Assembly: GCA_963790475.1 (NCBI GenBank) | Contig: CAWBOS010000015.1 | Span: 480,001-544,000 of the forward strand | Direction: 5' to 3' | Source of the DNA: an uncultured delta proteobacterium | GTDB lineage: Bacteria; Desulfobacterota; RBG-13-43-22 | DNA length: 64,000 nt | Part shown: piece by piece, positions 631 to 33,997 of the stretch | Layout of the letters: every line of letters starts with the position of its first letter | Numbering within the stretch: the first letter of the stretch is position 1 | Program-made: the position numbers and the translations under genes | Notes under the pieces: model-generated | Told to the model about the DNA's origin: nothing | What the model saw: the letters and a program-made list of their open reading frames with translations, nothing else | Databases searched by the model: none

Positions 631-2049
631 TTATCCGGTTCGGCGGCGGAGGTATTTGTAGTATTGAAGGGCATTTCTCAAGGCCTGGGCGCACCGCTCG
701 AAGGAAAGAAAAACCGGGATGCCCATACCCTGCAAGTTGAACATGATATCTTTTATTTCCTTTTCGGCATCGGGATTATAGAGCATGGACACAACCATCA
801 GGGGTTTGGAGTTTCTTTTCTTGACACTGTCCAATAGGTCCCTGGCCCCTTTCATTTGTTCGGGTGTGAAATGCCACCCCGGTTTCGTGGAAACAAAATA
901 AACCAGATTGTCAATATGGGGATCCTGGGCGACGATATCCATAACCCGTTTCATATCCCTTCGAACCGGTCCGGCGGAATCGATGGGATTACGGTAACTG
1001 CCTCCCACGGGTCCGAAGAAGGTCTCCAGTTCATCATAGGATTCCTGGGTAAGCTGGGGCACATTCAGCCCGGATTCGGCAAAAATGTCGGTGGCGGTCA
1101 CGGAGTGGCCTCCCGGCCCTCCGGCAATGGCCACCCTTTTTCCTTGAATAGCGGGAAGAAAGAGTAAGGCCTTCAGGGTATCGATCAGTTCCTCCAGGCT
1201 GGTCACCTGCAGGGCTCCACATTGATTGATTGCCGAATCCCAGATGTCCCTGGACGAGGCCAGGGACCCGGTGTGGGAGGCCGTGGCCCGCCCGCCTTCC
1301 TCCGTTCGTCCGCCCTTCCAGAGGACCACCGGTTTTCGAGCGGCCACCTCCTTCAATACGGAAAGAAAATGACGGCCGTTCTTCACCCCTTCCAGATACA
1401 TGCCGATGCCCTTGATTTCCGGGTCCTGGCCGAAATACTCCAGGAAATCCGGTGAATCCACCACTACTCCATTGCCGAAGCTCACCGATTTGTTGATGTC
1501 CAACCCCTGATCATGACCGTCCAGGCTGAAGGCAATGGCAATGCTCCCGCTCTGAGAAATAAAGCCCAGGGGACCGGAAGCACCAGTATATTGCTCGGCG
1601 CTCTGTTTTATCCCCACCCGGGGATTGAACAGCCCCATGCAATTGGGACCGATGAGATGAAACCCGGCCTTTTCCGCCTTTTTCACCAGCCGTCGTTCCA
1701 GGATCATTCCTTCTTCGGTATTGGTTTCAGAAAAACCGGCACTGAAGAAATGGGCCGCAGCCACATCCTTGCGAATGCAGTCATCCAGAACTCCGACAGT
1801 CACATTTCTGGGTACAGCGACAATAGCCAGGTCCACAGGTTCGGGAATATCGACCAGGCTGGGGTAATTTTCGATCCCCAGCGCCTTGATATCCTCAAAA
1901 GATTTGGGATTGAGATGGACGGAATAAAGTTTTCCCTTAAACGATTGGTGAGCTTTCAGCCAGTTGAAGTTATTACTTTTGCTGTCCCCGACCACGGCCA
2001 CCACCCGTGGATTAAAGGCTCGATGCAATTTATCGAAATCGACTTTCAT
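631..2049 (-). CDS. Acyl-CoA synthetase (NDP-forming) alpha-like, CoA-binding protein
   Basis: GPNCMG, SQSG, SFGN and ASHTGSLA (phospho-His) motifs. Confidence 0.85.
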   Translation of the reverse strand: MKVDFDKLHRAFNPRVVAVVGDSKSNNFNWLKAHQSFKGKLYSVHLNPKSFEDIKALGIENYPSLVDIPEPVDLAIVAVPRNVTVGVLDDCIRKDVAAAHFFSAGFSETNTEEGMILERRLVKKAEKAGFHLIGPNCMGLFNPRVGIKQSAEQYTGASGPLGFISQSGSIAIAFSLDGHDQGLDINKSVSFGNGVVVDSPDFLEYFGQDPEIKGIGMYLEGVKNGRHFLSVLKEVAARKPVVLWKGGRTEEGGRATASHTGSLASSRDIWDSAINQCGALQVTSLEELIDTLKALLFLPAIQGKRVAIAGGPGGHSVTATDIFAESGLNVPQLTQESYDELETFFGPVGGSYRNPIDSAGPVRRDMKRVMDIVAQDPHIDNLVYFVSTKPGWHFTPEQMKGARDLLDSVKKRNSKPLMVVSMLYNPDAEKEIKDIMFNLQGMGIPVFLSFERCAQALRNALQYYKYLRRRTG

Positions 2050-2070
2050 GCCGAACTCCCTTTTTCATCA

Positions 2071-4030
2071 TAGGCGCTTAGTGAATCAACATCGACAAAA
2101 TTTTGTCGATAATATTATGCTGCCATTTTATAAATTTCAAAAATTTGTTGCATCTCATGTTGGATATTTTTGTAATGAATATCGATAGTAGAGAAGTTTC
2201 CAGGTTTTGGTCCGGGATGATGCTTTTCAGCGCCAGCGAGCAGAGGAATCAATATTTTTTCCCGCAGAACAAGGACAGCCGTCATCGAACGCAAGCCCAC
2301 CGGGGTGGCCATATAACAGCGCGAATGGCCGATCATTTGAACCAGATCTTTACCTCTAAACTTTTTCAAGTCATAAGAAGCCTGCCGAGCCTGATACCGG
2401 CTCTGCGGGATTCTGAGAATTTCCCGGACTTTTTCTGCCAGATTCGCAGCCGTAAATCCACGGGGATGGATAGAAAGAGCAATAACAGCTTCCATGACCG
2501 CCCGGATACGAGGCCGATTGATATCGACCCCTCCCACGGAGGTGGCTCCAACCTTAGAGGGCAGAGGCCACTTCTCCAAGGTACCGTTATCAATAAAAGA
2601 AACATCGACCCCGTTCAGAACGGTGAGGAATCTTTCCAGGACTTCTTTAAGGGATTCGCAGATCTGTGGGAAACGATCGATCCGTTTTCCGCAACGCAAC
2701 TGACTCGTATTGTGAATAATAACCTCGGTTCGGAGAACCCTTTCGCCTTTGCTATACATCTTGACCGTCATTTTTCCAAAATGGATTTTGAAGATCGTCA
2801 GATCATAGACAGGTCTCTCGACCGTGATCTCGAATCGAGGCAACGGTTTCTTGCCGTGATGACTGAATGGCCGGTGTCGATAGCCAAAAATAGTTCGAAC
2901 CGTCTTGAGATTCAAAGGGGCTCTGGTTCGATCGATCAAGCCCTGGAACACCTGATCCAAAGTTCGGCCTCGGTTAAAAAGCAGATTGCGGCTATACTCC
3001 ATCTGATAAACAGAATAACTGTAATGGAAGCCACTGGCTTTCTGCTCCGAAAGATCCAAGGCAAAACAAAGACAGGCCGAATAAATCCATTGATCGCAGG
3101 TCCGAACCAGACGCCCTACAGAGCACGAGGCCCTCATGGTATCCGCGATGTGGTCCAGACCTGCGCTATCGGTCACTGCCGTAAAGCAGTTACCTTCTTT
3201 AGTAAAGACAAGCCCTTGTTTCATGGCCTGACGGGATAGATATTCATGTCCGTTCAGGATGATCTGGGCATTAAAAGGAGGATGGGGACAGAGTTTGATG
3301 GTCAGATGTCCCCATTCCGGATCCATTATGTGGAACGAATAATGGTTGACATAGGGGTAAGGGGTCTTGGTGGAAATGTTACTGATCCCCCCGCTTTTAG
3401 ATCGCTGAATGTGGAAAAGGGGTGCCGGAGCAATCCCGGCCAGAATACAAAATACACCCCGAAAGTTCGGATCCCCGGGAATATATTGCTCGGCCACCTC
3501 GTGCTTTCGTTCACCGCGCTGGCAATGGATCAAGGGAATACCTTCTTTCTTAGCATAGGCATGAATCCGTCGGCTGAGTCGTCCGGCAAAACGCATCAGG
3601 TTGGTATCATTCAGATCGTTATCTGTTCCCTTCAAGGCCCGCCACCAGGTTCTAAATCCTCCAGGGGACTGGCCAAAAATGAAATAGGCATTGAGCACAA
3701 TACGATCAATACAATCATAAATGCCGTCAAGGTAGTCTTGATATTGCTTGCAAAATTCATCTGCCATGATCATCGGTCTTTCCCTGGTCGATCTTTTGAT
3801 ATGGAGGGCTCCCCAGTCATTGCCGGGGCCCCTTCTCGGCGGCTGCGAGAATGGGCCCCTGAGCGGCTCGTCGGAGCAGCCGCCTCAATTAGAGGTTCTT
3901 TTACAGCTAATATCGGGGCTACCCCTTAAGGGAAAGACCAGATTAAAGACTCCGGGCTTTTAAGTCAACTGCCCTGTTAGGGGCCACCTCTTCCGGGGAA
4001 CTCCCGGACGAGGCGTAGAATCTTATTAGG
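2071..4030 (-). mobile_element. Putative IS-like element, boundaries approximate
   Basis: Perfect 20-bp palindrome ATCGACAAAATTTTGTCGAT at 2091-2110 just past the stop; GC-rich hairpin leader at 3800-4020; TAGG at both 2071-2074 and 4027-4030. Confidence 0.45.
2115..3773 (-). CDS. Putative transposase/replication-initiator-like protein of an unclassified mobile element
   Basis: 552 aa; KMYSK...LRTE motif; C-terminal wHTH-like SYDLKKFRGKDLV segment; inserted between metabolic genes; flanked by a palindrome and a structured leader. Confidence 0.55.
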   Translation of the reverse strand: MIMADEFCKQYQDYLDGIYDCIDRIVLNAYFIFGQSPGGFRTWWRALKGTDNDLNDTNLMRFAGRLSRRIHAYAKKEGIPLIHCQRGERKHEVAEQYIPGDPNFRGVFCILAGIAPAPLFHIQRSKSGGISNISTKTPYPYVNHYSFHIMDPEWGHLTIKLCPHPPFNAQIILNGHEYLSRQAMKQGLVFTKEGNCFTAVTDSAGLDHIADTMRASCSVGRLVRTCDQWIYSACLCFALDLSEQKASGFHYSYSVYQMEYSRNLLFNRGRTLDQVFQGLIDRTRAPLNLKTVRTIFGYRHRPFSHHGKKPLPRFEITVERPVYDLTIFKIHFGKMTVKMYSKGERVLRTEVIIHNTSQLRCGKRIDRFPQICESLKEVLERFLTVLNGVDVSFIDNGTLEKWPLPSKVGATSVGGVDINRPRIRAVMEAVIALSIHPRGFTAANLAEKVREILRIPQSRYQARQASYDLKKFRGKDLVQMIGHSRCYMATPVGLRSMTAVLVLREKILIPLLAGAEKHHPGPKPGNFSTIDIHYKNIQHEMQQIFEIYKMAA

Positions 4031-4087
4031 ATCAACCAAGAATTTTCCTATATCATTTTATGCATCTAAAATTTCAAACGGGTTTGG

Positions 4088-4828
4088 CTAATGTTCTTTA
4101 TTCCATTCAACGGCCACAATTCTATTTCCGTTAACCTGCGCCGCTTCGTCAGAGGCCAGATAAATGGCGGCCGGGGCCATGACCTCCGGTTTTAAAAGCC
4201 CGGAGAGCTGTTCTTTGGAAATTTTTGCCGGGACCATCCCGGTAAGGGTCGCACCGCCCGGCAGGAGCATATTTAAAGTGACCCCGGTCCCTTCCAATTC
4301 TTTAGACCAGATGGTGCTCATGGATTCCAGGGCCGCCTTGGAAGGACCATAAGGACTGAAGCCCTTCCGCCTCATAGTCCGTTCATGAACAGAAATATTA
4401 ATAATACGACCCCATTTTTGTTCTAACATAATGGGAACTACGGCCCGGGTCATTAGAAAAACGCCATTGATATTAGTGTCGATGATCATCCTCCATATCT
4501 CGGGATCCGTTTTCCAAAAAAAGGCCGGAGTCGTTGTAAAATCCTCACTGACATATTTCATGCCTCGGGCCGCATTATTGACCAGAATATCAATCCTTCC
4601 GTACTTAGACAGGGTGGTCTTGACCACGTTGGACACATCCTCTATTTTGGTGACATCGGCCTGAACGGCAGTACCACCGGTCAGGGAGGCGACCTCTTGA
4701 ATCTCATTCCATTCCCGGGCGGCAGTCACAATAAGTCGAGCCCCCTCTTGGGCATAGGCTAAGGCCATCGCCCGGCCGATGCCCCTGCCGCCGCCGGTGA
4801 TGATAGCCACTTTTTCCTTCAGTTTCAT
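4088..4828 (-). CDS. SDR family oxidoreductase
   Basis: TGGGRGIG, NNA and YGPSK motifs. Confidence 0.92.
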   Translation of the reverse strand: MKLKEKVAIITGGGRGIGRAMALAYAQEGARLIVTAAREWNEIQEVASLTGGTAVQADVTKIEDVSNVVKTTLSKYGRIDILVNNAARGMKYVSEDFTTTPAFFWKTDPEIWRMIIDTNINGVFLMTRAVVPIMLEQKWGRIINISVHERTMRRKGFSPYGPSKAALESMSTIWSKELEGTGVTLNMLLPGGATLTGMVPAKISKEQLSGLLKPEVMAPAAIYLASDEAAQVNGNRIVAVEWNKEH

Positions 4829-6626: not shown

Positions 6627-6890
6627 TCATTGAACTACGCCCGGAACATATTCCGCTTGGTTCTTTAACACATAGCGAATGCGGTTCAGGAGCCTTCGAG
6701 CGATCTTAACGATGGCTTTTGTTTCACGCATCCGTTGGCCATATTCATTAAAGGCCAGGAGCAGTACCGGATCTTTGCGGGCGGCCACCCAGGCCGCTTC
6801 GATCAGTACGGCTCTTAATTGGGAATTCCGCCGAAAGGACGTAAATCGATTGACCAGAGAAATCCAATTTGCTAACATATTCCATGGCAT
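6627..6890 (-). pseudogene. IS110-family transposase C-terminal fragment
   Basis: NSQLRAVLIEAAWVAARKDP...KAIVKIARRLLNRIRYVL is typical of IS110 C-termini; N-terminal part missing. Confidence 0.8.
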
Positions 6891-32546: not shown

Positions 32547-33997
32547 GGCCGCATCCGGCTTTTTCATGGGTATCCCCAATATGTTGTGTTTATTGAGGTT
32601 TGAATCTTAATGTTGGACAAGTTGGCTGTAGGGGAAATAACTTCAATCCACCACAATGAAAATATATTGCTGTTCGGTAGTGGGATCGATTTCGAAATCC
32701 ACAGGCCAATCGCTTGACCTTTTCTATTTTAGCATTGATACTTTCTCCCAGAGCATTGGTGATTCGATGTCTGGCATAAGTGACGATATTGTCGATATGA
32801 GTTTTTAGAGTATTGGCTGCTTTGATGACCGGGGCTAACCGTGAATGGGTTGCCCAAAAATACCATCGCTGAAAATAATGACGCATATGCGCCTCATAAC
32901 GGTAATCCCACAAATGTCGAATGTTTTCTTTAATAGCCCAAGCTCGGCAAACGCGCAGATCTTTCATCCGAAGCGTTTCAAATTCTTCTCTTCTCCATTC
33001 CGGAATATTCTCTTGACTCCACAACCACAGATACTTGGTCCCCTTCAGCACGGCCTCTCCTTGCTCGGAAAGCAATCGATGTTCATTCTTTCTCACTTTA
33101 TCCACGGCTTCCAGAACGTACTTCATGATGTGAAAACGATCAAAGACGATCTTTTTTTCCGCTCCAGGAATATAGGCCTTGGTGGCCGCAATATAGGGAT
33201 CCCACATGTCCATAGCCACGGCCTGGACTCCGGCCAACTCCTCATGGCTAAACTGCTGATAATAGCTTTCCAGACTTTCCTGTTTCCGATCATCAATAAC
33301 GTACTCAACCGTTCCGTTGTCCAGGTCATATACCAAGGATTCATATTTATGTCCTCGGGCAATAGCCTTTTCATCCACCCCAATACGGGACGGTATGCGA
33401 TGCTCTTTCCGGGACAATCCCCTGATAACAGCTCGTTCCAATGTATTCCAGCTCTGATCCCAGCTCAGACTGCACAGCCTGCCGGTAGCCTCAATACTGC
33501 ATTCTCGGGCTATTCGAATAACAAGGCTTTCAAAGGCATAGGTCATTTCCGAACCATTTTCTCCGAGTTCAGAAGTAATCTGTTTAACTCCATGATCAGG
33601 ACAATTAACCCGAGGCGTCCGAACATGAATATAGGTGGCCATCTGGCAGGTGTCCAGATGCCGATAAATTCTTTCCGGACTATGATCATAAACCCCATAA
33701 AACTGATCACACTCCGGGCATCTTACTTGTATGTCCTTTTCATGATCAAGATAGATGTCCACCCGTTGCTCCGCTTCATTAAGAATCACCCTGGTGATCA
33801 TCCAGGGGGGATGCAGTCCCAGCAGTTTGTAAAAAAAGGTCTTGTCGTCCATCCCTCTTTCTTTGCTAAAGTCTTTATGTTTTATTTTTTAATAAAAAAG
33901 CGGCTGCGAGAATGGGCCCCTAAACGGCTCGTCGGAGCAGTCGTCTTCCATTGTACCACAACATGTTGGGGGCACCCATGAAAAACCCGGGAGCCCC
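32547..33997 (-). mobile_element. ISL3-family insertion sequence
   Basis: ~41-bp imperfect terminal IRs (GGCCGCATCCGGCTTTTTCATGGGTATCCCCAATATGTTGTG / GGGGCTCCCGGGTTTTTCATGGGTGCCCCCAACATGTTGTG); 7-bp DR GAAAAAA at 32540-32546 and 33998-34004. Confidence 0.9.
32590..33852 (-). CDS. ISL3-family transposase
   Basis: CPEC zinc finger, GVDE, MDMW..Y, FDRFH, TNALGESIN.KI...KR.A.GFRN motifs. Confidence 0.95.
   Translation of the reverse strand: MDDKTFFYKLLGLHPPWMITRVILNEAEQRVDIYLDHEKDIQVRCPECDQFYGVYDHSPERIYRHLDTCQMATYIHVRTPRVNCPDHGVKQITSELGENGSEMTYAFESLVIRIARECSIEATGRLCSLSWDQSWNTLERAVIRGLSRKEHRIPSRIGVDEKAIARGHKYESLVYDLDNGTVEYVIDDRKQESLESYYQQFSHEELAGVQAVAMDMWDPYIAATKAYIPGAEKKIVFDRFHIMKYVLEAVDKVRKNEHRLLSEQGEAVLKGTKYLWLWSQENIPEWRREEFETLRMKDLRVCRAWAIKENIRHLWDYRYEAHMRHYFQRWYFWATHSRLAPVIKAANTLKTHIDNIVTYARHRITNALGESINAKIEKVKRLACGFRNRSHYRTAIYFHCGGLKLFPLQPTCPTLRFKPQ

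Follow-up and report, generated by a model that had tools for sequence, protein, structure and literature searches.

The 64,000-nt window analysed here, a stretch of the genome of an uncultured delta proteobacterium (contig CAWBOS010000015.1), carries near its left end an insertion sequence (IS) with a single gene on the minus strand. The core of this element spans window positions 2071-4025 (1,955 bp), and its open reading frame (ORF; 2115..3773) encodes a protein of 552 aa. When the genome that contains the window was searched with this protein, five places encoding it at 100% identity were found, on contigs C6, C12 (twice), C10 and C15 (the window), and the core DNA was likewise 100% identical in all five copies. 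In a DNA search of the same genome, the stretch common to the copies ran from window 2066/2071 to 4025, with different flanks at each copy. The original prediction, made from the sequence alone, had described an IS-like element whose 552-aa ORF shows no DDE, HUH, DEDD or serine-recombinase motif. The Pfam and NCBIfam searches returned no families at E ≤ 1 for the protein.

The copies sought in the genome were matched by empty sites in relatives. Four same-genus genomes (G105, G138, G286 and G301) have the genes that flank the IS here as direct neighbours with a spacer of ~21 nt, and four other letters separate window positions 2068 and 4091 in a public metagenome contig from a relative (~90% likeness). 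Against these empty sites, the DNA gained by the window is 2071-4087, made up of the core of 1,955 bp and a tail of 62 bp, and no bases were duplicated. We also detected miniature derivatives: 18 of the 20 loci fetched around short matches in same-genus relatives were elements of 203-451 bp with both termini in the right order (of the remaining two, L049 could not be resolved and L050 was cut by a contig end), and the window's own genome holds two such miniature elements and one partial. Clean empty sites for the relatives' miniature elements were not found in the window genome, where both flanks were present at five loci and the intergenic DNA was too diverged to fix the cuts. Because five identical copies lie at different sites, relatives have empty sites and miniature derivatives keep both ends, the IS-like nature of the element is well founded, and we regard it as near certain that this is a genuine, active-looking IS of an unannotated, very widespread family. 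Some sources call its homologs ArsR regulators, as would fit an immobile, ordinary multi-copy regulator gene of ArsR/MarR type; this view is contradicted by five 100%-identical copies of 1.96 kb with unrelated flanks, by the empty sites and miniatures and by termini shared across phyla, and we give it practically no credence. Parts of the ORF were covered at 90-99% likeness by metatranscriptome contigs from one run (X15); neither transcription of the window copy nor a leader RNA can be seen in them, and such contigs cannot exclude an RNA.

Comparison of the copies also fixed the ends of the element. A TAGG predicted at both junctions is indeed present twice (2071-2074 and 4027-4030), and the left end at 2071 was upheld as a junction, but the right TAGG was ruled out as one because the part shared by the five copies stops at 4025. 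An ATCA flanking 2071-4030 was rejected as a duplication in the same way, being absent at the other copies and relying on 4030, which is not a junction. The conserved right terminus reads ...GGCG-TAG-N3-CTTA, at 4016-4025; a first reading that closed the element at ...GGCGTAG was ruled out by the 18 miniature elements, in which conservation runs 7 nt further, mostly as ATTCTTA. On the plus strand, both ends read TAG-N3-CTTA, a direct rather than inverted repeat of ~10 nt. Terminal inverted repeats, which the original prediction had not found either, were absent: when the first 60 nt were aligned locally with the reverse-complemented last 60 nt, none of the four candidate right ends tried scored better than shuffles. 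No consistent target duplication was found among the 18 miniature elements, whose flanks shared 0-3 nt in an inconsistent manner. CTA stands at both junctions, so the boundary of the element is ambiguous by three bases.

The same ends recurred in other phyla. An alphaproteobacterial metagenome-assembled genome (MAG; loci L088-L117, record CAVOKY01...) contains an element at 19 loci, and its protein and that of the window element are 53% identical; all 19 loci end at one base, 45 nt past the stop codon, and four start 155 nt before the ATG. On the gene strand this element starts with CTACGC, a hairpin and GGCCCC-loop-GGGGCAG, and it ends with CGACAA-N-TTGTCG, ~10 nt and TAAGCGCCTA, matching the window element at both ends. 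Identical end anatomy was found in six further genome pairs and on a plasmid of a cultured Mycobacterium, and the termini are conserved in Desulfobacterota, Alphaproteobacteria, Chloroflexota, Acidobacteriota, Dormibacteraeota and Actinomycetota. Among 39 distinct 5' junctions, CTA was present in 37-38, A at -6 in 36 and AAG at -6 to -4 in 27, with the three bases between AAG and CTA variable; 28 of the 31 distinct 3' ends were made up of the palindrome, a spacer and xAAG-N3/4-CTA or TTA. The 3-4 bases between AAG and CTA vary in the alphaproteobacterial MAG even among copies that are otherwise 99.7-100% identical, and this part is therefore flank and (T)AAG a target preference.

Several junctions carry reiterated units of 8-17 nt that contain the motif. 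In several genomes (L062 866-931, L056 3152-3203, L075 3134-3185, L084 3126-3177) an 8-nt unit, C-TAAG-N3, is repeated two or three times, and these reiterations may have been left by slipped termination or by recurrent insertion and excision. On the Mycobacterium plasmid (L133), a 17-nt unit occurs twice before the 5' junction, and the gene upstream encodes a 'hypothetical protein' of ~539 aa.

Inside these ends lie a palindrome on one side and a structured leader on the other. The 20-bp palindrome noted at 2091-2110 is perfect and lies 5 nt after the stop codon; the sequence itself is conserved in the family, which makes it a likely protein-binding site, and its likely partner is the winged-helix domain of the protein described below. 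The leader, described as hairpin-rich and ~250 nt long, measures 245 nt (3774 to about 4018), and its fold as single-stranded DNA had a z-score of -4.58, with none of 200 shuffles as good. Leader length varies, reaching only ~155 nt in the alphaproteobacterial MAG, and just two terminal hairpins (HP1 and HP2) are common to the family. HP1 covaries strongly, in keeping with the hairpin ends that had been predicted: 95.2% of cells were paired, compared with 78.7% in shuffles and 41-55% with the partner slid, and nine of its 11 pairs changed on both sides, with 106 two-sided changes against three one-sided changes of the G-U type. Covariation with G-U pairs nearly absent suits a DNA hairpin better than an RNA.

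These features bear on whether the element is an RNA-guided or site-specific IS of the IS110/IS1111 type with a guide RNA in its leader. Such elements likewise have no inverted repeats or duplications, a structured region upstream of the gene and short identity at the junctions, as the window element has with its 245-nt leader. They differ in carrying DEDD (RuvC-like) and Transposase_20 domains, neither of which Pfam or NCBIfam detected in the protein or in 32 diverse family members, and we found no conserved long leader RNA: Rfam returned no match on window 1900-4200, the shared structure is limited to the two short hairpins, and the changes in HP1 are almost all two-sided. We consider an IS110/IS1111-type element highly improbable, and neither the possible non-coding RNA of the original prediction nor any guide or regulatory RNA in the leader is supported.

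The surroundings of the IS copies revealed a second repeated sequence. A 213-bp non-coding repeat that starts TAGTAACTTAGG and ends GGGTTAGG comes straight after the core in four of the five copies. Its first bases are the TAG-N3-CTTA motif of the IS ends, and it is also solitary at eight sites in the window genome. A first reading of this repeat as the target of the IS gave way to a better one, that of a related non-autonomous element in head-to-tail tandem with it. The window copy has a 62-bp remnant (4026-4087) in the repeat's place, and the two ends of this remnant resemble the two ends of the repeat. Tandems were also detected in the alphaproteobacterial MAG, which has at least 19 near-identical copies: 15 of the 19 loci extend upstream into a conserved sequence that is the 3' part of a paralogous gene (22% identity, E 9e-24) and ends ...TAAG-GGA immediately before CTACGC, and the composite with the paralog outnumbers the single element. 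This is the same arrangement as that of the 213-bp repeat and the IS in the window genome: an element lies exactly at TAAG-N3 in the 3' end of another member, and the two appear to have then spread together.

Some further copies of the repeat were of note in themselves. Three seem to be split by insertions of ~1.5-1.8 kb (C12:171333-173145, C12:1488787-1490526 and C6:571119-573020), and the copy at C10:1521108 bears an IS-type left end in place of its own. The short module past the right end of the IS (window 4026-4087) recurs beside the miniature elements L035, L039, L040, L041 and L048; it has a hairpin around ATTCTTA...GAGAAT, followed by ...AATTTCAAA-N4-TTTGG.

Homologs of the protein were abundant. 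Of 8,000 candidates scored in a word-indexed search, 5,854 proteins reached E ≤ 0.001, and among 50%-identity representatives an exhaustive profile search found 7,365 at the same threshold, 887 of them at E ≤ 1e-30. The best 120 word-search matches contained no Pfam domains and carried the name 'hypothetical protein' or, occasionally, that of an ArsR-type regulator. We confirmed 321 stretches in species-representative genomes; the 80 retained were from MAGs labelled Thermodesulfobacteriota, Planctomycetota, Chloroflexota, Acidobacteriota, Alpha- and Gammaproteobacteria, Actinomycetota, Dormibacteraeota, Nitrospira, Caldithrix and others, and the family occurs in more than 10 phyla, with up to about 20 copies per genome. 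It was also present in 20 records of plasmids of cultured bacteria (Mycobacterium, Rhodococcus, Burkholderia, Paraburkholderia and Caballeronia), annotated as hypothetical or ArsR. The Mycobacterium plasmid NZ_OY970457.1 carries at 142768-145593 (L133) a 50%-identical copy with the same termini, and there are five matching places in that record. NCBI names IS transposases with its NCBIfam models; neither these nor Pfam matched the protein or any of 32 diverse family members, and RefSeq names the homologs hypothetical or ArsR, so that the family is set apart from known IS families by these models and names rather than by ISfinder itself. The 30 nearest clusters in the ESM Atlas had no common Pfam family, and a search from the most divergent member, P0268, returned 16 proteins, none with a Pfam domain.

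Structure models of the protein were compared with known folds by Foldseek, as the original prediction had proposed. The full-length model (predicted local distance difference test, pLDDT, 70.8) had as its best PDB match the Rep_trans initiator RepSTK1 (4cij, E 3.9e-3), followed by TATA-binding proteins (TBPs); its C-terminal part matched winged helices of MarR/ArsR type, with weak PadR and HTH_27 matches, in agreement with the predicted C-terminal winged helix-turn-helix (HTH). Residues 1-395, folded with an alignment of 79 sequences, gave a confident model (pLDDT 90.8; predicted TM-score, pTM, 0.90) for which the only four PDB matches at E ≤ 0.001 were the four chains of 4cij (E 4.5e-4 to 7.9e-4, probability 0.98-0.99); the next match was an archaeal TBP (1mp9, E 0.036). 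A fold search of BFVD yielded eight matches at E ≤ 0.001, the best of them unnamed and one a viral TBP. Pfam and NCBIfam detected no HUH motif and no Y1 or Y2 transposase domain, and the fold matches were not HUH/RRM proteins. Two papers give the Rep_trans catalytic domain a crescent-shaped sheet of TBP-like topology (PMC4797284, PMC5714925), and the core model appears to have such a crescent, pseudo-symmetric sheet, as a distant match. The models suggest that the protein combines a Rep_trans/TBP-like catalytic core with a C-terminal winged helix.

According to these two papers, the beta-strand that bears the nucleophilic Tyr of Rep_trans proteins, within RxYxK(xxE), comes after a strand with TxYxG and before one with RxE, and the metal site is formed by RxDxAxD and an N-terminal Asp (PMC4797284, PMC5714925). 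The original prediction had likened KIHFG, KMYSK and LRTE to this core, and we located them at residues 329-333, 338-342 and 347-350. Across 32 members at 24-94% identity, D23, R24, Q257, Y340, R348 and E350 were invariant, and K338 and K342 were at least 90% conserved. The core model places 335-342 and 346-353 on adjacent predicted strands, with Y340 on the first and R348 and E350 on the second. An hhalign comparison of 79 family members with 37 Rep_trans proteins covered 102 columns and was weakly significant (pairwise E 0.0057, P 0.006); in the register of the original prediction, it paired KTIFG with RTxF, KIHFG with TIYLG, KMYSK with RIYDK (which holds the invariant Rep_trans Tyr) and LRTE with IRFE. 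By this weak alignment, motif III would be K338-x-Y340-x-K342, with Lys in place of Arg and Y340 opposite the Rep_trans Tyr; motif IV is represented by R348 and E350, aligned to the Rep_trans R and E; and motif II would correspond to KIHFG, of which the Gly alone is well conserved among family members.

Several results weigh against a Rep_trans-like enzyme acting at TAAG-N3 sites. The superposition on 4cij is loose (Foldseek TM-score 0.27 by query and 0.36 by target, root-mean-square deviation ~12.8 Å over ~375 columns), and the folds differ considerably; RepDE and RepDN were absent among the Foldseek matches listed, and a sequence profile search of the PDB returned nothing at E ≤ 10. The Pfam model Rep_trans (PF02486) missed the protein, the 32 diverse members and the whole genome, with a Bacillus subtilis control positive. 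The HH probability of the larger hhalign comparison was only 6.4%, and when the first partner was a set of four Rep_trans genes from same-phylum genomes, KMYSKG..LRTE fell onto RIYDKA..IRFE without significance (E 0.2-0.23; 0.64 in global mode). Motif I (RxDxAxD, metal) has no clear counterpart, its region lying outside the confident hhalign stretch; at a guess, Q257-x-E259-x-S261-x-N263, D23 or D151 could supply its residues. As to the sites, the empty site puts the window insertion directly after T(A/T)AG and not after TAAG-N3, N3 is mostly AAT in the miniature elements of the genus, and the end of the tail module and that of the 213-bp repeat are without a TAAG-N3 flank.

The missing Pfam match, the low HH probability and TM-scores and the unplaced motif I would all fit a new IS family whose enzyme is not a functional relative of Rep_trans, its TBP-like sheet being convergent or a DNA-binding scaffold and its chemistry of an unrecognised kind; TBP, a non-enzyme, is also among the fold matches. 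We hold this to be unlikely, because for the confident model the Rep_trans E-value is ~80-fold better than that of TBP, the family-invariant residues map collinearly onto the Rep_trans catalytic motifs, and the end anatomy (no inverted repeats or duplication, hairpins, a 3' target motif) is that of tyrosine nick-and-join elements.

Among known systems, the Rep_trans/MOBT enzymes (pT181 RepC/RepD, RepSTK1, ICEBs1 NicK, ICESt3 RelSt3 and CTXphi RstA) gave the best and only significant fold match of the core. They share with the IS a counterpart of motif IV, preceded in collinear order by candidate counterparts of motifs II and III, an invariant Tyr on a predicted beta-strand, a separate HTH-type DNA-binding domain and a repeat near a presumed nick region with a GC hairpin. 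One paper describes these enzymes as nicking at a conserved CT'AA and needing an HTH-bound site nearby (PMC9371924), and the element's CTA at both junctions is comparable to that nick site. The IS protein differs in being much larger (552 aa, with a ~60-residue insertion between the sheet halves), in having Lys for the motif III Arg and no motif I that could be found, and in its Tyr-RxE spacing of eight residues compared with about 14-21; its carrier is a chromosomal multi-copy IS with miniature derivatives and not a plasmid, phage or conjugative element.

The HUH elements are similar in anatomy and different in enzyme. Like IS91, ISCR and Helitrons (HUH Y2), the window element has one gene, neither inverted repeats nor duplication, a short target motif at one end and composites that resemble read-through of an internal end, but it is without an HUH motif or Y2 domain, and its catalytic fold is unrelated. 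The IS91 transposase has a zinc-binding N-terminus, in place of which the IS protein has a winged helix. Subterminal hairpins at both ends, insertion beside a short flank motif and the lack of both duplication and inverted repeats recall IS200/IS605 (HUH Y1 TnpA), but the IS protein is ~4x larger, has a different fold without a Y1_Tnp domain and is not accompanied by a TnpB partner gene. From the DDE-transposase families the element differs in having no terminal inverted repeats and no target duplication of fixed length.

Taking the alignments and models together, we consider it probable that the window element represents a new IS family whose movement is of the nick-and-join kind, tyrosine-mediated and in the manner of rolling-circle or single-strand elements, and is carried out by a distant Rep_trans-like enzyme with a C-terminal winged helix. 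In the scheme that follows, we infer the chemistry, every step, the cleavage positions, the strand moved and the circle. The winged helix would bind the conserved palindrome near the 3' end, and the core would nick one strand at the TAAG-N3-CTA sites of both junctions, with Tyr340 as nucleophile and the 5' nick site adjoining the covarying hairpin. A cut at CT^A in both junctions is an attractive lead only, suggested by analogy with the CT'AA nick site. The enzyme would remain joined to the 5' phosphate while the strand of the element is either displaced or copied and then closed at the second site. Joining of the closed strand into a new (T)AAG-N3 target would restore a complete 5'-junction site and make further movement possible. 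Neither duplication nor inverted repeats would be required. The 3' end of each member carries a target site, and members could therefore insert head to tail, with the tandems then moving as units.

Many homologs lie on ~2-kb contigs, and joining of the 3' and 5' ends would bring the palindrome, TAAG-N3-CTA and the GC hairpins within ~100 nt, a layout resembling a Rep_trans double-strand origin with its binding repeat beside the nick hairpin. The element could then be chiefly a rolling-circle replicon, a circle of plasmid or satellite type that replicates on its own and now and then integrates, rather than a purely chromosomal transposon. This seems to us distinctly improbable: all examined copies are integrated with sharp chromosomal flanks, ~2-kb contigs are also expected from collapsed repeats, and neither a single-strand origin nor any other plasmid function is present, for which 1.95 kb would in any case leave little room. 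Metagenome and metatranscriptome contigs contained no circle junction, though contigs cannot show rare forms or exclude a circle.

With the chromosomal nick-and-join IS as our preferred reading, the balance tips slightly towards its being the first member of a new class of transposable elements in prokaryotes, whose transposase would be a tyrosine nuclease of Rep_trans/TBP fold joined to a winged helix; the class would add a new chemistry and fold beside the DDE, DEDD, HUH, serine and tyrosine recombinases, with a short (T)AAG-N3 target and an origin-like site that is rebuilt at integration, as would account for the head-to-tail arrays. If so, Rep_trans-type nucleases, hitherto known only from rolling-circle plasmids, filamentous phages and conjugative-element relaxases, would also drive a large family of chromosomal ISs and would link rolling-circle replicons naturally to transposons outside the HUH superfamily. 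The carriers given in a 2026 paper on archaeal Rep_trans-like proteins (PMC13107129) are limited to plasmids, filamentous phages and conjugative transposons, and the portions of the literature available to us contained no description of an IS or transposase of Rep_trans or TBP-like kind. A new transposase class would account for thousands of 'hypothetical protein' and 'ArsR regulator' labels and for many ~2-kb metagenome contigs, and would improve the annotation of repeats and ISs in MAGs. It would also offer a compact one-protein system (~550 aa plus ~150 nt of ends) with a short target and no duplication, a candidate tool for DNA insertion.

Table 1. Features of the insertion sequence and copies of the associated 213-bp repeat; positions are those of the window unless a contig is named.
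Feature	Position	Strand	Remarks
Core IS	2071..4025	-	Common at 100% to five genomic copies
Single ORF, 552 aa, presumed transposase	2115..3773	-	Core 1-395, winged helix about 420-490, helices 491-547
3' terminus, gene sense C-TAAG-CGC-CTA	2071..2081	-	TAAG-N3-CTA kept across phyla
Perfect 20-bp palindrome, core CGACAA-N3/4-TTGTCG	2091..2110		Sequence kept in family
5' leader, terminus to ATG, hairpin-rich	3774..4015	-	Only HP1 and HP2 kept in relatives
HP1, 11-bp-stem hairpin adjoining 5' terminus CTACG	3987..4013		Covaries across family
HP2, short GC hairpin GGCCCC-loop-GGGGC	3969..3985		Highly conserved
5' junction, gene sense TAAG-ATT then CTA	4016..4025	-	(T)AAG-N3 flank-like; CTA = first three bases of element
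62-bp tail module	4026..4087		Gained with IS relative to empty site; resembles both ends of 213-bp repeat
213-bp repeat copy (among others)	C12:1548298-1548507
213-bp repeat copy (among others)	C10:746689-746897
213-bp repeat copy (among others)	C10:1086155-1086363
213-bp repeat copy (among others)	C13:134415-134623
213-bp repeat copy (among others)	C11:39224-39433

Two other places in the window may be related to mobile elements. A GC-rich hairpin stretch of the IS leader (window 3839-3885) recurs at 91-95% identity at window 33900-33946 and at C15:183004-183045 of G000. The first of these leader-like stretches lies just upstream of a 420-aa ORF (window 32590-33852, minus strand), presumably an ISL3-type transposase gene, and the second belongs to another copy of that locus. 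An 87-aa ORF at window 6627-6890 (minus strand) seems to resemble the C-terminal part of IS110-family transposases and is possibly left over from another IS.

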